Source of the DNA: Minisyncoccota bacterium
Lineage (GTDB): Bacteria > Patescibacteriota > Minisyncoccia > Phycocordibacterales > UBA9973
NCBI GenBank assembly: GCA_035510575.1
Contig: DATKGV010000004.1
Location: forward strand, 88,419-152,418
Reading direction: 5' to 3'
DNA length: 64,000 nucleotides
A model generated the notes under the pieces. It did not search any database. It was not told the DNA's origin and saw only the letters and a list, made by a program, of their open reading frames with translations. The position numbers were made by a program, and so were the translations under genes. Each line of letters begins with the position of its first letter. The stretch's first letter is position 1. Below, piece by piece: positions 3,966 to 54,990 of the stretch.

Positions 3966-4007
3966 CCACATGTCGGACTTGTGGCTAGCCACAAGTCCGA
4001 CATGTGG
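3966..4007. repeat. 42-nt perfect palindrome CCACATGTCGGACTTGTGGCTAGCCACAAGTCCGACATGTGG in the rpoB-rpoC intergenic space
   Basis: The reverse complement, computed by hand, equals the sequence. It lies exactly between the rpoB stop (4018..4020) and the rpoC start (3952). Confidence 0.9.
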
Positions 4008-7561: not shown

Positions 7562-7588
7562 AGTAAGCTAGGACAGTCCTAGCTTACT
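7562..7588. repeat. REP-like palindrome AGTAAGCTAGGACAGTCCTAGCTTACT (core AAGCTAGGACAGTCCTAGCTT)
   Basis: Near-perfect palindrome with an unpaired centre base. It overlaps the last codons and the TAG stop of the RAYT gene. Confidence 0.85.
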
Positions 7589-8259
7589 GAAGTGAAATAA
7601 TTTTCAACAAATTTTTGGAATGACTGCTTTAATTGAAAATAATCTGGAAATGCTACTTTATTTAAAATATTACCTTCCACTCTATCGAGACCAAGATAAT
7701 CAAAATAACTTGAATAATTATATGATTCAAGAAAATCTTTCATTGCTTTATTGTCAACATTTTTATTCTTATCCTGTTTTTCCCAACCAGAAAACTTTAT
7801 ATCAAATACATTTAGATGGATATATGCAAAAAGTTGTCGCATATAATTATCATCTGTTTTTATACATTTTGATTTAAAAGGCCCACCGAATAAAGCACCT
7901 TGTCTTTGATATTTTATATTGAAGAACATTGAATATCCTGTACCTAATTTTTTCATAAATTTAGTAATACCACTATCTATTTCCTGTCTAACCAAAATAT
8001 GAAAATGGTTTGCCATAAGACACCATGCGCCAATTGAAACAAGCGGTTTACCCTTATCTAAAATCATAACTTCAAAAAAAGACTTTTTTTGTTGATTTAT
8101 AAGATTATTTAATTTAAATTCCTCCTGAGAATTTGAAATATAAATAAGCATAATAAATCTTTCAAAATCATATTTTGATTTGAAAATAATTCTTTTATCT
8201 ATACCACGATTGTACAAATGATAATATTCGCCAGTGATAAATGGATCTTTTCGCAACAT
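7579..8259 (-). CDS. HUH-family Y1 transposase (RAYT / IS200-like TnpA)
   Basis: Motifs: YHLYNRG N-terminal block, HUH motif NHFHILV, and the catalytic Tyr block YIHLN (compare YIYINP in E. coli RAYT). Confidence 0.75.
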   Translation of the reverse strand: MLRKDPFITGEYYHLYNRGIDKRIIFKSKYDFERFIMLIYISNSQEEFKLNNLINQQKKSFFEVMILDKGKPLVSIGAWCLMANHFHILVRQEIDSGITKFMKKLGTGYSMFFNIKYQRQGALFGGPFKSKCIKTDDNYMRQLFAYIHLNVFDIKFSGWEKQDKNKNVDNKAMKDFLESYNYSSYFDYLGLDRVEGNILNKVAFPDYFQLKQSFQKFVENYFTSVS

Positions 8260-8268
8260 GTCTTGTAT

Positions 8269-8309
8269 TATATACCATAAGCTAGGACAGTCCTAGCTTA
8301 TGGTATATA
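8269..8309. repeat. REP-like palindrome TATATACCATAAGCTAGGACAGTCCTAGCTTATGGTATATA
   Basis: 41-nt near-perfect palindrome 10 nt upstream of the RAYT start. It shares the 21-nt core with 7562..7588. Confidence 0.85.
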
Positions 8310-17279: not shown

Positions 17280-17310
17280 AATCAGCCATAAGTCCGACTT
17301 ATGGCTGATT
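17280..17310. repeat. 31-nt palindrome AATCAGCCATAAGTCCGACTTATGGCTGATT at the trmD 3' end, followed by a T-run on the plus strand
   Basis: The right arm encodes the last codons and the TAA stop of trmD. It shares the GTCGGACTT/AAGTCCGAC core with the rpoB-rpoC palindrome. Confidence 0.8.
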
Positions 17311-26633: not shown

Positions 26634-27593
26634 TTAATTCGCTTTTTTTGTAAGAATCTCTATCGCTTTAGTTAAAAGAGGTACCATGTTGTCATACATT
26701 TTAAGATTCGGAATTTCTTCAAGCGCAAACCATCTTGCGTCATCCAATCCTCCAGTGCCTTTTTCAAGGACAATATTTGCATACGGAGATTCGCCGAGAA
26801 AGAATACGACTTGCTTGCGAATTTTCCCTTTTTCCGGATGCGAGGCTATATATTCATTGCGTCCAAGCAATTCTTTTATTTTAATATCAAGGCCCATTTC
26901 TTCCTTTATCTCGCGAATGGCGCCTTGTTCTTCATTTTCATTTTCTTCAATGCTTCCTTTAGAAAGAGTCCAGTAGCCAAACACGTCATGAACGAAGGCG
27001 AAATAAATTTGGCTGTTTTCTATCGCATAAACGACGGCGCCGGCTTTTTTCTCTATCGGGAATTTAGCGGGATCAGTTTCAAAATGCTTGTTCTTCCTGC
27101 TGACATCATTCTTGCCTGGCTCGCCTATTTCCTTATAGACCCCGCCCAGAACTCCGTTTATGAATTTGCTGGAGTTTTCCCCGCCGAAACTCTTGGCAAG
27201 CTCGATTGATTCGTTGATTGCCACTTTGGGCGGCACTTCCTTATGATCGCCGAACAATAATTCATATAATCCTATACGCAGAATATTGCGGTCCACTATT
27301 GATATCTTATCAATCGGCCAATCCGGAGCGGCTTTCTCGATGATTTCATCGATAATCGGCTTTTTCTTTATAATGCCGAGAAAAAGCTCCTGCATAAATT
27401 GCGAGTCGTCAAGCCCCGGTCCGAATTCTAGAATGTTGCGATTAAGCATCTCTTTTGGATTCATTTCATTATTCAATGAAAAATCCCACTCAAAGAGCGT
27501 CTGAAGAACAATTGAACGTGAAAGGTGCCTGTTTGCCATAAAAAATCTAGAAAATAAAATCTTGAAATGTTTCTTGTATAAGAAACATTTCAA
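26634..27593 (-). CDS. nusB: NusB-like antitermination domain fused to a NUDIX hydrolase
   Basis: N-terminal NusB blocks (RHLSRSIVLQTLFEWDF...ILRIGLYELLF...FINGVLGGV). C-terminal Nudix box GSIEENENEEQGAIREIKEEMGL. Confidence 0.75.
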   Translation of the reverse strand: MKCFLYKKHFKILFSRFFMANRHLSRSIVLQTLFEWDFSLNNEMNPKEMLNRNILEFGPGLDDSQFMQELFLGIIKKKPIIDEIIEKAAPDWPIDKISIVDRNILRIGLYELLFGDHKEVPPKVAINESIELAKSFGGENSSKFINGVLGGVYKEIGEPGKNDVSRKNKHFETDPAKFPIEKKAGAVVYAIENSQIYFAFVHDVFGYWTLSKGSIEENENEEQGAIREIKEEMGLDIKIKELLGRNEYIASHPEKGKIRKQVVFFLGESPYANIVLEKGTGGLDDARWFALEEIPNLKMYDNMVPLLTKAIEILTKKAN

Positions 27594-27597
27594 GATT

Positions 27598-27807
27598 TTA
27601 TTTTTTCTTTTTAGCTTGCTTCTTCTCTACTTTCTTTACCACATCTATAACCTTGCGCCCGTTGTAAAAACCGCAATTTTTGCAAATTATATGAGTTTCC
27701 TTTGCTCCCTTGCAATTTGAACACGTGGCAAAAACCTTGGCTTTCAAGGCATGATGTGATCGGCGGTTCCCCGTATGAGCTCGCGTATGTCGCATTCGTA
27801 CTACCAT
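27598..27807 (-). CDS. rpmF: 50S ribosomal protein L32
   Basis: RMRHTRAHTGNRRSHHAL N-terminal block plus a CxxC...CxxC zinc ribbon. Confidence 0.7.
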   Translation of the reverse strand: MVVRMRHTRAHTGNRRSHHALKAKVFATCSNCKGAKETHIICKNCGFYNGRKVIDVVKKVEKKQAKKKK

Positions 27808-44723: not shown

Positions 44724-46016
44724 TTATTTCTTCAAATATTTTAGCGCTTTTTGCCCTATATCGCGCCGGTATTGCATGCCATCAAATGAAATTTTTGATA
44801 CGGCTTCATAGGCACTTTTGAGCGCTTCTTTTAAAGTATTACCTATTGCGCTTACTCCAAACACACGTCCGCCATTTGTCACAAAATTTCCATTTTCATC
44901 AAGCTTCGTTCCAGCATGAAAAACAAAAATATTTGAATTATTTTCTGCTTCTTTTATTCCAGAAATAATTTTGCCTTTTTCATAATTCCCCGGATATCCG
45001 CCTGAAGCAAGCACTATTGTGCAAGCAAAAAGCGGTTTCCATTTTATATTAATAGTGGAAAGTGTGCCATTTATGCAAGCTTCAAATATATCCAGAATAT
45101 CGGTTTCCAAAAGCCGCATGTAACTTTGCGTTTCGGGGTCGCCGAAGCGGGCATTGTATTCAAGTATTTTGGGACCATCTTTTGTAAGCATCAATCCCGG
45201 ATAAAGTACGCCGACAAACGGCATTCTTTGCGCATTCATGGAAGATAATGTCAGTTTGATAATACTGCTTTCTACATCCGCCATAATATCATCCGTTACA
45301 AACGGCAACGGCGCAATCGTTCCCATACCGCCGGTGTTTAATCCCATATCTCCTTCGCCGATTCTTTTATGATCTTGCGATGGCGGGAAAATTGAATATG
45401 ATTTGCCGTCAGAAAACGCATGCGTTGATATTTCAATGCCTTCCAAAAATTCTTCAATCACGACTTCATTGCCTGATTCGCCGAATATTTTTTTTACCAA
45501 AATATCAGAAAGGGCCTCTTTGGCTTCTTCGTAATTGGCGCAAATAAATACTCCTTTGCCTAGAGCCAGTCCGCTTGCTTTAATTACAATAGGCAATTTT
45601 TGATTATCTAAATATTTAATGGCCTCATCAAAATCAGTAAAAGTTTTAAAGCTGGCAGTTGGTAAGTTATAGGTCTCCATAAAATGCTTGGCAAATGCTT
45701 TTGATGATTCAAGTTGAGCCGCTGCTTTGGTAGGTCCGAAAATTTTCAAGCCATTTGCCGTAAATATATCAACTATTCCAAGGGCAAGCGGGTCATCCGG
45801 AAGCGCCAATGTCATATCTATATTTTCTTTTTTGGCAAAATCAAGCAACGCATTAATATCAGTCGCTTTTATATCCACATTCTTTCCCAAACTAGCTGTA
45901 CCTCCATTCCCCGGCGCAAAAAATAACTCTTCTGCGCGCGGCGACTGCGCAACTTTCCATCCTATCGCATGCTCCCGTCCCCCGCTTCCAATGATTAAAA
46001 TTTTTAGTTTGTTCAT
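44724..46016 (-). CDS. purD: Phosphoribosylamine--glycine ligase
   Basis: KILIIGSGGREHAIGWK plus an ATP-grasp body. Confidence 0.9.
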   Translation of the reverse strand: MNKLKILIIGSGGREHAIGWKVAQSPRAEELFFAPGNGGTASLGKNVDIKATDINALLDFAKKENIDMTLALPDDPLALGIVDIFTANGLKIFGPTKAAAQLESSKAFAKHFMETYNLPTASFKTFTDFDEAIKYLDNQKLPIVIKASGLALGKGVFICANYEEAKEALSDILVKKIFGESGNEVVIEEFLEGIEISTHAFSDGKSYSIFPPSQDHKRIGEGDMGLNTGGMGTIAPLPFVTDDIMADVESSIIKLTLSSMNAQRMPFVGVLYPGLMLTKDGPKILEYNARFGDPETQSYMRLLETDILDIFEACINGTLSTINIKWKPLFACTIVLASGGYPGNYEKGKIISGIKEAENNSNIFVFHAGTKLDENGNFVTNGGRVFGVSAIGNTLKEALKSAYEAVSKISFDGMQYRRDIGQKALKYLKK

Positions 46017-46037
46017 AAATAATTTAATTTCTCTTAG

Positions 46038-46071
46038 TGCTACAAACTCTGCACGTGCAGAGTTTGTAGCA
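46038..46071. repeat. 34-nt perfect palindrome TGCTACAAACTCTGCACGTGCAGAGTTTGTAGCA (copy 1)
   Basis: The reverse complement, computed by hand, equals the sequence. Lies between the purD start and the stop of the Cys-rich gene. Confidence 0.9.
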
Positions 46072-46081
46072 TTTTGTTATT

Positions 46082-47821
46082 TTAATACACCTCTTGTTGA
46101 TAACACTTTTCACAATAAATAATTTCTGGCCTCTCAGGTGCATAACTTGTCTCAAATTCCACTTGGCATTTTCCTTGATGAATATGAGTGGTTTTATCGC
46201 ACATGCATGATCTATGCCAGAGTTTCATGGGGTTTCTTTGAGCTAGTCGCTCATAGTGCCGACAGTTAGGACAGAGATGAGGTAATGGCAAGTTCATTCT
46301 CTTGTAGAATTGAAGCTCTTCAGGGATGATCTTGAAGGCCTCGGTGCATTGTTGGTTACAGGTTCCTTTATGATTACATTCTATGACTTTACCTATGATG
46401 TCGTCTGTTATGTCTTTTATGTTATCGGGAATGTCTTTATTGTATATATCTATCTCATAGTTTCTTTCTTCTTTGTCTTTCCATTTGTAACCTTGATTTA
46501 AAGCTTGTTCTTTAGTTAATGGGAAGTACTCTTGAGCTATTGTTTCGTTGTAGCAGAATGGTGATAGTTCGCTTGGGAAGAATTCTCCATATTTATATAT
46601 TCTACCTTTACTATCTATGTAGGGCATATCGTTCATGTGCTTGATGATTTTGGGGACTAATTCTTCATATTCTTCTTTGGTGTATTGACGGTTTAGGATG
46701 CAGAATTGATTACTCTTTAAACTAGTACACCCAAACAAATCAGAAGAAGACGCACAAAAATCTGAATAAAAAACATTTCTTAGATTTTTTAATCCATTAT
46801 TTGCAAATAATAAATTATAGCTATTATTTGCTCCCCCTCCGGAAAATTCATAAATTAATTCGCAATCCGCTATATTATTACCTTCATAACAATCTTTGGA
46901 TCCATAACACCTAAATATATTTTTTGTATTTTCGATATTATATGCATCAAAAGACATTTTTGCATTTTTTGCATTAGATAATTCATCGCCTGTACTACTT
47001 GTAGATTTTATTATTTGAGCGTATTTACGAGGAAATTTTTTCATAATATTTTCAAATTCTTCTTTTGTTTTTTGGATATTTCTAAAACTACCAAAATCAA
47101 AAGTTTTAATTTTCTCTTTATACTCTTTCTCATTAAGTTGTATGTTGTTAAAAACATATTTTTTATTTCTTAACCCTACTGAACAAAAACAATTCTGACA
47201 ATCAATACAATCAAAAAGAAAAGATGAATCAATGCAATTTCGGCAAAGTATCAAAAAAGACGAATTATAGTTATTTTCTCCTCGAATATTTTCATAGCAT
47301 AAATTAGAGTTAATAAGACTCAAGCTATCAAAAACATCTTTGGATCTATCAATGCTTTTGCAAAAAAATATATTTTCCGAATTATTTACCGAAAATGATA
47401 AGTAAAGATTTTTACTTTCGCCAATTATATTGGAATATTCGCTATTTAAACAATTTCTGTTGAATAAGTTAGGTCTTGGAACTTTTTGATTTAATTCTTT
47501 CAATTGTTCAAAGAATGATTTAGAAAAATCATATTTTAAACCAAACGACAAAGGGTCCCAATTGTCGGAATACCAACAATTTATGCAATATATGGGAAAA
47601 GAAGAATTCTGATGGTACATAGTTATGCCTTTTTTACCACAAATACCGCAAGTAAAATGATAAAGTGATCTTTCGTTACGAAATTGAATACGGCGCATTG
47701 TTCTACATTCAAAACAAAAAGTCGGCAGAGGAACTTTTATTTTTTCATAAAAAGAAAAGTCGTCTAGCTCAATAATAAAGTTGTTTTTGCAATTTTGGCA
47801 GATTTTAGTTTCTGAATTCAT
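46082..47821 (-). CDS. Cys-rich multi-zinc-ribbon protein (579 aa) with N/S-rich low-complexity centre; unknown function
   Basis: N-terminal CQNC...CFEC and C-x2-C...C-x2-C pairs. The C-terminal ribbon repeats the N-terminal motif (FY.K...PLP..C..CR...R...RN occurs at both ends). More than 40 Cys in total. No RuvC, HNH or radical-SAM motif was recognised. AT3-biased codons. A paralog lies at 1..249. Confidence 0.7.
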   Translation of the reverse strand: MNSETKICQNCKNNFIIELDDFSFYEKIKVPLPTFCFECRTMRRIQFRNERSLYHFTCGICGKKGITMYHQNSSFPIYCINCWYSDNWDPLSFGLKYDFSKSFFEQLKELNQKVPRPNLFNRNCLNSEYSNIIGESKNLYLSFSVNNSENIFFCKSIDRSKDVFDSLSLINSNLCYENIRGENNYNSSFLILCRNCIDSSFLFDCIDCQNCFCSVGLRNKKYVFNNIQLNEKEYKEKIKTFDFGSFRNIQKTKEEFENIMKKFPRKYAQIIKSTSSTGDELSNAKNAKMSFDAYNIENTKNIFRCYGSKDCYEGNNIADCELIYEFSGGGANNSYNLLFANNGLKNLRNVFYSDFCASSSDLFGCTSLKSNQFCILNRQYTKEEYEELVPKIIKHMNDMPYIDSKGRIYKYGEFFPSELSPFCYNETIAQEYFPLTKEQALNQGYKWKDKEERNYEIDIYNKDIPDNIKDITDDIIGKVIECNHKGTCNQQCTEAFKIIPEELQFYKRMNLPLPHLCPNCRHYERLAQRNPMKLWHRSCMCDKTTHIHQGKCQVEFETSYAPERPEIIYCEKCYQQEVY

Positions 47822-47857
47822 GCGTAAATTATAACCCCAAAAACCCTCTTCTACAAG

Positions 47858-47891
47858 TGCTACAAACTCTGCACGTGCAGAATTTGTAGCA
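47858..47891. repeat. 34-nt palindrome copy 2 (1 mismatch) centred in the divergent promoter region; candidate operator
   Basis: TGCTACAAACTCTGCACGTGCAGAATTTGTAGCA. Each arm contains a TTGTAG hexamer roughly 16-17 nt upstream of a TATAAT-like element, one for each divergent gene. Confidence 0.85.
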
Positions 47892-47915
47892 TATTATTTT
47901 TGATTAATATATAAT

Positions 47916-48398
47916 ATGAACATGTCTATTGTTATGGAAATTTTAGAAGAACTTTGGAACACTGAGCTTAATTATAAAGGAATTAAAGTAAATATTTTTG
48001 GTATTCCTCGTTTTAAACAATATTCATCTAAAAGCGTTAGGGCAACTATTGATCGCCTAAAAAGAAAGGGCGTCATAGAAAAAGAATTAACTGGAATAGT
48101 ACTCTCAAAATATGGCAAAGAATATGTCAGAAGAAAAATTGATTCATTAAAACAATTTGATAGACCAGAAAATATATCTAAAGATAAAAATCTTCTAGTA
48201 ATGTTTGATATACCTGTTGAGAAAAAAGGGGAACGCGAATGGTTCCGATGGCATCTCAAAAAATTTGGTTATATTATGATTCAACATAGTGTATGGGTTG
48301 GACCATCTCCCCTACCCAAAGAATTTCTTGATTATGTTAAAAGTATAAAACTTGATAAATGTATTAAAACTTTTAAACTTGAAAAACCTTATAAATAA
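47916..48398 (+). CDS. Minimal PaaX-like regulator: winged-HTH plus Cas2-like domain
   Basis: The N-terminal wHTH (VRATIDRLKRKGVIEKE...LSKYGKEYVRRK) parallels PaaX (VRTALFRLNKEGWL...LSDKGLRLTRR). The block LLVMFDIPVEKKGEREWFRWHLKKFGYIMIQHSVWV fits the Cas2 / PaaX-central-domain pattern (beta-strand with Asp, basic helix, G...Q.SVF/W). Confidence 0.65.
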   Translation: MNMSIVMEILEELWNTELNYKGIKVNIFGIPRFKQYSSKSVRATIDRLKRKGVIEKELTGIVLSKYGKEYVRRKIDSLKQFDRPENISKDKNLLVMFDIPVEKKGEREWFRWHLKKFGYIMIQHSVWVGPSPLPKEFLDYVKSIKLDKCIKTFKLEKPYK

Positions 48399-48401
48399 GA
48401 A

Positions 48402-48435
48402 TGCTACAAACTCTGCAGGTGCAGAGTTTGTAGCA
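48402..48435. repeat. 34-nt palindrome copy 3 (centre CAGGTG instead of CACGTG)
   Basis: TGCTACAAACTCTGCAGGTGCAGAGTTTGTAGCA. Starts 4 nt after the stop of the PaaX-like gene. Confidence 0.85.
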
Positions 48436-48459
48436 TTCTTGGAAAACGATTACATGAGA

Positions 48460-49179
48460 TTATCCTTTCGGATACATCTTAATTGCAAGCTGTTTGCATT
48501 CTTCTAAAATTTTCTCTTCACTTGGTAATACAAGAGGTGTTTCGCGAATAAATTCTGAAACATTTCCATTGGCAAAATCGCGGAGAGTTTCAATCTGCAC
48601 TTCATGCTCAATCGGAAGCACTCGCGCTTGGAGTATTTCTGCAGTATCGTTTTGAAATATTGGCACTTGCTTTCTTTTCACAATTTTTCCTTCATCAAAA
48701 TCAACTGTAACTCTATGGGCTGTAGCTTCTGTCCAAAAATCTTTGTTCGTCCTGCGGACAAATTCCAGTCGCGCTTGGTGAACGCGCATTCCATACATTC
48801 CAACTCCGCCAAAGTCAGGTCGCCCTGTGTCCAATGGTCCTGGATGCTGATTGATAATCATATTTTTGTAGGCCTCTATGACATTGCTTGGCGTTTTAAC
48901 TAGCCAGCCATATTGGCCGATAAAATCAACATTTCTCTTCTTGCATTCGGCAAGAATAGCTTCTCCATATAAGCTGTTATCAGCAAATGCTTTTGGATTT
49001 AAAACTAGAATATCTTTTTCTTTAATGCCGAGATCGAGCGCTTTTTGTATTCCTCCAATTCCCTCTTTGCTGGCAATAACAAGAGCAGGAACAACGCCTT
49101 GCAAAGCATTATCTTTGCAGGCCTTTATAATTGCCTGCATAGTAGTTCCGCCGCCAGATATGAGCAAAGCGATTTTCAT
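48460..49179 (-). CDS. purN: Phosphoribosylglycinamide formyltransferase
   Basis: MKIALLISGGGTTMQAII plus a formyltransferase core (INQHPGPL). Confidence 0.85.
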   Translation of the reverse strand: MKIALLISGGGTTMQAIIKACKDNALQGVVPALVIASKEGIGGIQKALDLGIKEKDILVLNPKAFADNSLYGEAILAECKKRNVDFIGQYGWLVKTPSNVIEAYKNMIINQHPGPLDTGRPDFGGVGMYGMRVHQARLEFVRRTNKDFWTEATAHRVTVDFDEGKIVKRKQVPIFQNDTAEILQARVLPIEHEVQIETLRDFANGNVSEFIRETPLVLPSEEKILEECKQLAIKMYPKG

Positions 49180-54461: not shown

Positions 54462-54944
54462 ATGGAAAAGATAAATATCTACATAGATGGTAACAATTTA
54501 TACCGATCGGCTAAAGAATTAGGATTTGAAATTGATTACAAAAAATTTAGAGGATGGCTTAGGCAGAAATATAATGCAAGCAATATCTATTTATTCATTG
54601 GTCTTGTGCCCGAAAGAGTAAAATTCTATGAACACCTGCAAAGTTGTGGCTATATTTTAGTTTTTAAACAAACAGTTTCTATTGGAGAAAAAATAAAAGG
54701 AAATTGTGATGCGGAACTTGTATTAAAAACCGTATCTGACTTTTACATTAAATCTTTTTCAAAATGCATTTTGATCACTGGTGATGGAGATTTTGGATGT
54801 TTAGTAGAATTTTTAAAAGAAAATAAAGTTATAAATATAGTAATAGCTCCCGATGAAAATAAATGCTCCATTTTATTAAGAAATAAAAATATAGAAATTA
54901 CCTTTTTAAACGAGCTTTATCATAAATTTTCAAATAAGATATAA
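54462..54944 (+). CDS. NYN/LabA-like domain protein (putative RNase)
   Basis: INIYIDGNNLYRSAK start and an ILITGDGDF block typical of NYN. Confidence 0.7.
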   Translation: MEKINIYIDGNNLYRSAKELGFEIDYKKFRGWLRQKYNASNIYLFIGLVPERVKFYEHLQSCGYILVFKQTVSIGEKIKGNCDAELVLKTVSDFYIKSFSKCILITGDGDFGCLVEFLKENKVINIVIAPDENKCSILLRNKNIEITFLNELYHKFSNKI

Positions 54945-54954
54945 AAAGAAAAAG

Positions 54955-54990
54955 CCCCCAATGCAGACGAATCTGCATAAGGGTCTTTTT
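54955..54990 (+). terminator. Rho-independent terminator downstream of the NYN gene
   Basis: CCC-A-ATGCAGA-CGAA-TCTGCAT-AA-GGG hairpin followed by TCTTTTT. Confidence 0.5.

Follow-up and report, generated by a model that had tools for sequence, protein, structure and literature searches.

A likely protein partner for a conserved 34-bp palindrome of Paceibacteria: comparative analysis of a short, putative winged-helix/Cas2-like protein and its proposed site family

Introduction

PaaX is a winged helix-turn-helix (wHTH) dimer that binds the inverted repeats TGATTC-N27-GAATCA and represses its own gene by steric hindrance (PMC9493321). Here we analyze a 34-bp palindrome and the gene beside it, which encodes a 158-aa protein (P160), in a 64-kb stretch of DNA (hereafter the window). 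The locus resembles the PaaX system in several respects. In the PaaX proteins of E. coli and Pseudomonas an N-terminal winged helix precedes a Cas2-like dimerization domain (PF20803); P160 has this domain too, behind an N-terminal half with weak winged-helix matches. Both sites are inverted repeats with far-apart halves (27 bp in PaaX, ~28 bp here), located in a divergent promoter region; PaaX occupies promoters that include its own, the site considered here overlaps the putative promoter of P160, and the repression by PaaX of its own Px promoter is, by analogy, the model we propose for P160 autoregulation. P160 differs from PaaX in being half its size, without the C-terminal effector (phenylacetyl-CoA) domain, in having nucleotide-metabolism genes as neighbors, and in having sites that are perfect 34-bp palindromes and occur also at 3' ends and within open reading frames (ORFs). 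The BlaI/MecI/CopY regulators are likewise small autoregulated wHTH dimers, as P160 is proposed to be, and their palindromes also contain TACA/TGTA; P160 departs from them in its Cas2-like ferredoxin-fold dimerization domain and in a much wider spacing of half-sites.

Palindromes of this length are also known as repeats. REPs are 20-40 bp long, lie mostly downstream of genes and are sometimes intragenic, and RAYT genes are flanked by REPs (PMC3733652). The P160 system shares with REP/REPIN-RAYT systems a 20-40 bp palindromic family, located mostly after genes and occasionally within them, and a gene, single-copy and vertically inherited, that has its own repeats on either side. Unlike them, it has no HUH tyrosine transposase and a low copy number, and its repeats are fully symmetric, without an unpaired GTAG/CGTC tag, and the upstream copy holds a fixed position relative to the promoter. 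Rickettsia palindromic elements (RPE) lie in frame in housekeeping genes and are translated as a short peptide, like the in-frame copies described below; RPE are, in contrast, 100-150 bp long, lack a known cognate protein and are not known to serve as operators, and the intragenic copies reported here are seen in relatives and not in the window. Cas2, finally, shares with the C-terminal half of P160 a ferredoxin-like fold and a conserved Asp ending strand 1, whereas P160 has no cas1 or CRISPR array at its locus and joins this domain to a predicted DNA-binding half.

Taken as a repressor acting on a palindromic operator, the system is of an already known kind; what is unusual here is a genome-wide family of sites, the presence of in-frame copies and a readable code relating protein to site. 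Our searches of the literature (PaaX together with Cas2, palindromes in CPR/Parcubacteria, and in-frame palindromic elements of these lineages) returned no description of the P160-site system.

Results

The palindrome and its surroundings

The palindrome at 47858-47891, TGCTACAAACTCTGCAC|GTGCAGAATTTGTAGCA, is made up of two 17-nt arms with zero spacer, in which C47867/A47882 is the single non-complementary pair. A further copy at 46038-46071 is free of mismatches, and a third, at 48402-48435, differs solely in the central 4 nt and extends its symmetry to 21+2+21 nt (48397-48440). These three copies lie within 2.4 kb, spaced by 544 and 1820 bp with one gene in each interval; no others were added in the 64-kb window by a relaxed pattern allowing two mismatches, and 100 dinucleotide-preserving shuffles yielded no copies even with 3 mismatches allowed. 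Folded as single strands, the copies form hairpins of -12 to -22 kcal/mol (z -6 to -11), the strongest DNA hairpin being that of 48397-48440 (-22.1 kcal/mol, z -11). An Rfam search at a permissive threshold assigned no family to the palindrome, returning merely meaningless miRNA-type hairpin matches.

The coordinates of the locus are collected in Table 1. Its genes lie in a minus-strand purine operon with the order purL, purQ, purF, purN, the 48402 copy, P160 (+), the 47858 copy, P579 (-), the 46038 copy, purD and purE. The ORFs of the divergent pair start at 47916 and 47821, with 94 nt between them, and homology places the true P160 start at the second ATG, 47922, yielding a 158-aa protein that begins MSIV. 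The TTGTAG read as the P579 -35 element (47856..47851) adjoins the left arm and lies one nt outside the palindrome. A consensus promoter/terminator scan of the window performed no better than on shuffles and missed the promoters that were read by eye; the promoters in the window are inferred as consensus matches only, and transcription starts remain unmapped.

Table 1 Features of the P160 locus, in window coordinates
Feature	Position	Strand	Basis and remarks
34-bp palindrome, proposed P160 operator between the divergent P160/P579 promoters	47858..47891	.	sequence; register in relatives; protein-DNA covariation
Palindrome copy (core 48402-48435)	48397..48440	.	6 nt past the P160 stop, 20 nt past the convergent purN stop
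Palindrome copy, perfect	46038..46071	.	10 nt past the P579 stop, 21 nt ahead of the purD start
P160 gene, 158 aa, putative winged-helix N-terminal half and Cas2-like/PaaX_M C-terminal half	47922..48398	+	listed ORF (160 aa) begins at 47916
Codons of the predicted recognition helix, residues 36-48	48027..48065	+	AF2 helix; MI/z ranking; sliding-window partial Mantel peak at 31-48
Putative P160 promoter: TTGTAG 47884-47889 (right arm), 20-nt spacer, TATAAT 47910-47915, 6 nt to ATG 47922	47884..47915	+	sequence; TTGTnn-17-TATAAT in relatives, 19/23 against a 7-9% background; leaderless-type
Putative P579 promoter: TTGTAG 47856..47851, 17-nt spacer, TATAAT 47833..47828, 6 nt to ATG 47821	47828..47856	-	sequence; divergent tmk/C16 layout alike in relatives
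P579, Cys-rich 579-aa protein, divergent partner gene	46082..47821	-	without database match

The earlier note, made without database searches, had described a dyad with one mismatch between divergent start codons 94 nt apart, with extra copies at 46038 and 48402. Each of these statements holds: the arms, read directly, show the single C/A pair, both copies were found, and the distance is correct for the ORF starts 47821 and 47916. Its placement of a -35 hexamer in each arm is imprecise on both sides. On the plus side the TTGTAG of the arm sits 20 nt and not 17 nt from TATAAT; on the minus side the correctly spaced TTGTAG flanks the palindrome outside the arm. Counting of the palindrome gave three copies in the 64-kb window and 1-3 exact matches per MAG, short of a whole-genome census.

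The divergent partner, P579, has no match in Pfam, NCBIfam, PADLOC or PHROGs. It carries CxxC...FY.K...P.P..C..CR modules repeated at both ends, and its homologues (47-57% identity) either close a tmk-dut-argS operon or stand between purN and purD, in most cases with the palindrome after them. In these homologues the copy lies 5-38 nt 3' of the stop.

P160 is a short PaaX-like protein

P160 matches PF20803, the Cas2-like central domain of PaaX, with 46.7 bits (E 3.4e-12, cutoff 24), and scores 26.2 bits on the PaaX equivalog TIGR02277, far below its cutoff of 264.55. No match to PaaX_C was found in P160, which stops at residue 158 directly past the Cas2-like domain. Winged-helix profile matches to the N-terminal half are weak, and those of residues 5-55 to BlaI/MecI/CopY-type profiles (E 0.025-0.067) fall under any cutoff. 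The Asp at the end of strand 1 of the Cas2-like half is conserved (the invariant Asp96). The AF2 model has a pLDDT of 61.5, lower in the N-terminal half, and predicts a helix at 36-48; it is too uncertain for modeling DNA contacts. A sequence search of the PDB with P160 returned nothing relevant, PADLOC and PHROGs gave solely Cas2-domain or weak regulator matches, and PF01797 (HUH/Y1) did not match. The description of P160 as PaaX-like in the earlier note calls for a correction: P160 is a truncated PaaX-like protein (putative wHTH plus Cas2-like, without PaaX_C) and no PaaX orthologue.

P160 passes the cutoff of the Cas2 TIGRFAM (TIGR01573, 30 bits against 24.5), which accounts for its public name of "CRISPR-associated endonuclease Cas2" in NCBI PGAP; JGI calls it "DNA-binding transcriptional regulator PaaX", and neither name fits. 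No cas1 gene or CRISPR array is present at the locus, where the flanking genes are purN, P579 and purD, and we consider the Cas2 label very likely a misnomer. Neither are there paa genes near P160, the neighbors being pur genes here and tmk/dut/thyA/glyA in relatives, and no recombinase gene is adjacent to the locus.

The family of ~160-aa wHTH-Cas2-like proteins comprises 1,433 clusters at 50% identity with E<=0.001, 15 of them with E<=1e-30. At 90% identity there are ~2,000 clusters, and the listed members are 75-87% identical to P160. Some public gene calls for P160 relatives start within the palindrome (MAEFV..., MDTNSAMADFV...), and in one contig a P160 gene has as its convergent neighbor a second PaaX_M protein of 181 aa (L146:2060-2605, minus strand).

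A site family conserved across Paceibacteria

The core ACA-N3-TCTGC-N4-GCAGA-N3-TGT was found at >130 loci of Nomurabacteria/Paceibacterota. An exact-pattern scan of one genome per species located it in 17 stretches from ~13 Nomurabacteria/Paceibacterota MAGs, and a metagenome scan in at least 120 stretches; scanned viral contigs held no copies of the core. The sites occupy orthologous positions across species. Position statistics were computed over 136 distinct copies, with arm positions numbered from the dyad. The arms do not vary at positions 3-7 (TCTGC) and 11-13 (ACA), a conservation that is shown computationally. Positions 14-17 take all four base-pair types across genomes, yet are complementary in 96-99% of cases, and with a relaxed core positions 8-10 prove variable (AAC, AAT, TTT, ATC, CTT and others) while symmetric within each copy. 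The covariation score of the copies is 0.38, against 0.12 in shuffles (reached in 0/500) and 0.06-0.09 in slid controls.

Hardly any G-T pairs occur in the copies, and the central four bases are mostly palindromic themselves (CATG, ACGT, TATA and others). Because of these two properties we infer from the sequences that the symmetry belongs to double-stranded DNA and not to one transcribed strand.

Three observations concern individual contigs. Upstream of the P160 gene in L145 (1390-1503), the inner core carries a compensated change, ACAACCTTAGC-CATG-GCTAAGGTTGT replacing TCTGC/GCAGA, and keeps the GGAA flank that its helix predicts. Several contigs break at the palindrome, among them L009/L012 and L086/L087. 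A palindrome with 69-nt arms reaches the contig end in L005 (1-140), and L038 is mirror-symmetric throughout around two copies; we rejected both as biology and left them uncounted as fold-backs at contig ends, which are likely to be assembler artefacts triggered by the palindrome.

The sites are linked to P160 genes in a fixed promoter register

An upstream copy accompanies 28 of 29 distinct P160 homologues, its core ending 26-35 nt (mode 32) before the ATG. A downstream copy follows the stop by 7-79 nt in 24 of 26, and 23/26 P160 genes have copies on both sides; about one third of all copies from the collection scans adjoin a P160 gene. The register extends to the putative promoter: the arm sequence TTGTnn, followed after 16-18 nt by a TATAAT-like hexamer, is present on 19 of the 23 sides that face P160 starts, against 4/46 sides facing other gene starts and 6-8% of sides elsewhere. 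This fixed register is shown computationally. In P160 relatives the TATAAT ends 6-9 nt before the ATG and a Shine-Dalgarno sequence is absent, which suggests leaderless P160 mRNAs, an inference from sequence alone that is experimentally untested.

The usual divergent neighbor in relatives is a tmk-dut-argS(-P579) operon, and the divergent tmk/C16 promoter has its -35 element, TTGGAA, at a distance of 2-6 nt past the other arm, with 17 nt between it and a TATAAT. The window keeps this divergent layout, with P579 in place of the tmk operon. The usual surroundings of P160 (e.g. L104, L135, L070) include tmk, dut, thyA, dCMP deaminase, glyA, NUDIX, MazG-like and deoxyribosyltransferase-like genes, and this thymidylate/dNTP cluster may hint at the physiological target of the regulator.

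The flank of the palindrome covaries with a predicted recognition helix

Arm positions 14-17, which differ between genomes, are identical in 26-28 of 29 pairs of copies from the same contig. The inner triplet, positions 8-10, differs in about half of these pairs; in many genomes the upstream copy typically has ACAAAC and the downstream copy ACATTT or ACACTT. Gene conversion or spread from a master copy was considered as a cause of the genome-specific flanks and rejected, the inner triplets of the same copies remaining different. Copying would have made the inner triplets alike as well, and the shared flank therefore argues for a reader that is specific to the genome.

The 29 P160 proteins were aligned and their columns ordered by the information they hold on the 4-nt flank. 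The top residues are 41, 44, 37, 40 and 48 (z 7.3 to 4.6), which form an i, i+3/4, i+7, i+11 series on one face of the helix predicted at 36-48. In partial Mantel tests, flank distance is associated with the helix (residues 33-46) given the rest of the protein (r=0.56, p=0.0002) and not with the rest given the helix (r=0.005); in an unbiased scan with a sliding window of 12 residues, the only peak falls at residues 31-48. With n=29, the partial Mantel test controls merely approximately for the relatedness of the sequences. Within this scope, the covariation between helix and flank is shown computationally.

The association can be read as a code in residues 40/41/44: R-T-D goes with TGAC/TGAT, R-A/G-D with TGCT, R-N-x with TGGT, Q-V-N with GGAA and V41 with xGAA, while the Y-N-S helix type goes with CTAT. 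The window genome, with K, R, A, D and R at residues 37, 40, 41, 44 and 48, has the TGCT flank. Out-of-sample predictions of the flank were right at all five of five new loci (RTD TGAC, RGD TGCT, RND TGGT, QVN GGAA and QVA xGAA), four of them at all four bases, a predictive success that is likewise shown computationally; a sixth locus, with the new helix type R-S-D, has the flank TGAC. At sites more than 900 bp from the P160 gene on the same contig the flank matched in 4/5 cases, the mismatch being the argS copy in L094, whose flank is unlike that of its contig's P160. One MAG (JAENWX; L005, L144) has two P160 genes, Y-N-S with CTCT-type and R-N-D with TGGT-type palindromes, which are either paralogous orthogonal pairs or the product of bin contamination.

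Copies at 3' ends and inside genes

Many copies sit at gene or operon 3' ends, behind P160, P579, atpC, uvrA, grpE, an ABC-F gene and a HIT gene. Of the copies located downstream of gene ends, 48% have a T-rich tail, against a background of 7%. The 46038 copy is called a terminator on the plus strand, and the sole T-tract in the window (after 46071) is oriented opposite to the gene that ends there.

In relatives, copies also occur in frame within miaA (L007, L022, L105 and others), argS (L102, L103, L094), pgk (L091, L111) and an RT gene with a DGR-type motif (L011, L064). They are always read as TNSAxAEFV, or as TFSAxAENV for the ACATTT variant. The amino acid that precedes TNSA (A, D, E, G, S, T or V) follows the repertoire of flanks, and the intragenic copies therefore also track the code. 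Among the 120 closest miaA homologues, 28 have an intact palindrome and ~20 a variant copy; this site turns over fast relative to the divergence of the protein, other hairpins occupying it in other lineages. The same MiaA loop in L139 (10001-10921), for instance, holds the unrelated hairpin CCCAAGC-AAG-GCTTGGG, read as ..PKQGLG.., and one MiaA homologue that is 89% identical to a palindrome-bearing one has a different insert. From these comparisons the loop seems to be a hot spot for palindromes. The pgk copy adds ~6 residues relative to orthologues without the palindrome.

Origin of the arrangement in the window

The pur operon of the window (44724-49179) is interrupted by two genes. In the closest relative, whose purN is 85% identical, purD begins 12 nt after purN and the P160/P579 block is missing; in another, purN and purD overlap. 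A third (L141) has purN, a centre-deleted remnant of the palindrome (CATCCTTACAAACTggAGTTTGTAAGGATG), a P579 homologue and purD. From these relatives, with purN and purD adjoining or with an insert of P579 only, we infer that P160 and P579 entered the pur operon along with the sites that flank them, and that the arrangement in the window is the derived state.

Discussion

The evidence presented here makes it likely that the 34-bp palindrome is a site recognized by the adjacent P160, a comparative inference made without binding data. This reading is supported because the register is conserved in 28/29 homologues, flank and helix covary and five predictions of the flank were correct. The central claim of the earlier note, that the palindrome is an operator of the adjacent PaaX-like protein, is to this extent borne out by comparative evidence and by no experiment. 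Its suggestion that the extra copies are additional sites or terminator-like elements also fits, such copies following the stop codon of P160 in 24/26 homologues and those of P579 homologues. The account was nevertheless incomplete, in that the sites form a lineage-wide family with hairpin-type symmetry and in-frame copies in relatives, for which promoter control alone is insufficient.

In the mechanism we propose, P160 would be a "mini-PaaX" consisting of a winged-helix half and a Cas2-like dimerization domain, without the ligand-binding C-terminal domain. As a symmetric and presumably dimeric protein it would bind a palindrome whose arm combines the invariant ACA (11-13) and TCTGC (3-7) with the genome-specific positions 14-17, the latter being read by the recognition-helix face (37, 40, 41, 44, 48). 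The site at 47858-47891 would cover or abut the -35 elements of two divergent, apparently leaderless promoters; on that ground bound P160 is predicted to exclude RNA polymerase from both, leading to autoregulation of P160 and co-regulation of P579. The copies at 48402 and 46038 would be further P160 sites at 3' ends, forming strong hairpins and probably acting as terminators or roadblocks. The dimer, the repression and the role of the 3' copies are all inferred and have not been tested experimentally.

Several observations count against this model or are left unexplained by it. The co-varying bases of the two arms lie ~28 bp apart, which would require an extended or DNA-bending dimer, and in the window the spacer between the -35 and -10 elements on the P160 side is 20 nt and not 17. 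Protein contacts do not explain the strict Watson-Crick symmetry at arm positions 8-10 and in the central 4 nt, nor the 3'-end and in-frame copies. Template-switch correction of quasi-palindromes is a plausible neutral cause of such symmetry, and we put it forward as a proposal; alternatively, hairpin or cruciform extrusion may matter.

The main rival explanation, which we regard as unlikely, is of the REP/RAYT kind. It holds that the sites are selfish or domesticated hairpin repeats, that P160 (as a Cas2-like nuclease with Asp96) recognizes single-stranded hairpins and copies or maintains them, and that the overlap with the promoter reflects secondary self-regulation, as in IS200/IS605. In its favor, the P160 gene is bracketed by repeats (on both sides in 23/26), copies occur in intergenic 3' regions and in frame in genes with fast turnover at the miaA site, each copy is perfectly symmetric even at positions without sequence conservation, the copy-bearing block is missing from the pur operon of the closest relative, and specificity shifts in concert over all the sites of a genome. 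Against it, P160 lacks the HUH/Y1 signature, while a genuine Y1_Tnp gene with different flanking palindromes is present elsewhere in the window; copies are few (3 in 64 kb, 1-3 exact matches per MAG); the sites are orthologous across species and absent from the viral contigs; and upstream and downstream copies keep different inner triplets with a common outer flank, which speaks against copying or gene conversion.

We consider it very unlikely that the palindromes act without a protein, as bidirectional intrinsic terminators or as RNA hairpins, and owe their conservation to structure alone. The strength of the hairpins (-12 to -22 kcal/mol, z -6 to -11), the excess of T-rich tails (48% vs 7%), the terminator called at the 46038 copy on the plus strand and the long perfect hairpins that follow many genes in these genomes are consistent with this view. 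Structure alone, however, does not explain the conserved stem sequence or its linkage to one gene and to the helix residues of that gene's product; the virtual absence of G-U pairs and the palindromic "loop" place the symmetry at the DNA level; the copy at 47858-47891 lies ahead of both promoters, where it would escape transcription; and the T-tracts of the window lie on the wrong strand for the genes ending there, with no Rfam match. An RNA hairpin as such was set aside on the near absence of G-U pairs and the symmetric centre.

Equally improbable, in our assessment, is that the palindromes are recombination sites or cassette borders by which P160 and P579 entered the pur operon. Each of the three junctions does coincide exactly with a copy, only 12 nt separate purN from purD in the closest relative, and another relative has P579 only, with a centre-deleted remnant before it. 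Yet no recombinase gene is adjacent, the copies accompany the genes in their usual tmk/thyA neighborhood, and so travel with them and mark no insertion event, and the covariation of helix and flank remains unexplained. From what is generally known of parS, dif, DNA-uptake sequences and integron attC sites, these candidates were dropped for misfits in sequence, copy number or neighboring genes.

Returning to recognition of the palindrome by P160, a bolder version is possible, in which P160 and its palindromes constitute a self-contained, lineage-wide protein-site system of Paceibacteria and no ordinary regulon. A ligand-less protein would have a readable, fast-drifting code that all the sites of its genome follow, including those in frame in miaA, argS and pgk. 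Such a system might work as a dedicated roadblock or terminator and insulator where genomes are very compact, or might be a new counterpart of REP/RAYT outside the HUH class, its Cas2-like protein maintaining hairpin repeats of its own.

These results assign a likely function and DNA target to a very conserved family in uncultivated CPR bacteria, which have almost no characterized regulators. The relation of residues to bases is a directly testable code that could serve to locate sites in the genome of any member of the Paceibacteria. As a warning for annotation, a Cas2 call in the CPR, a group reported to be mostly free of CRISPR, can be P160. The sites at operon ends and in frame in housekeeping genes follow the code of their genome, which raises the question of the protein's role there.

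Other palindromes in the window

The window contains palindromes of other families. A 226-aa ORF on the minus strand (7579-8259) matches PF01797 (IS200-like Y1 transposase) with 27 bits and is flanked on both sides (7562-7588 and 8269-8309) by the palindrome TAAGCTAGGAC-A-GTCCTAGCTTA, which belongs to a family distinct from the P160 sites; we infer from the sequence that this ORF and its palindromes resemble a pair of the REP/RAYT type, here in the genome of a CPR bacterium. At 17280-17310 there is a related palindrome, GCCATAAGTC/GACTTATGGC. A 160-aa NYN-domain (RNase-like) ORF on the plus strand (54462-54944), unrelated to P160, is followed by the hairpin CCCCCAATGCAGACGAATCTGCATAAGGG at 54950-54990, and further long perfect inverted repeats are located at 27551-27604 and 3966-4007.
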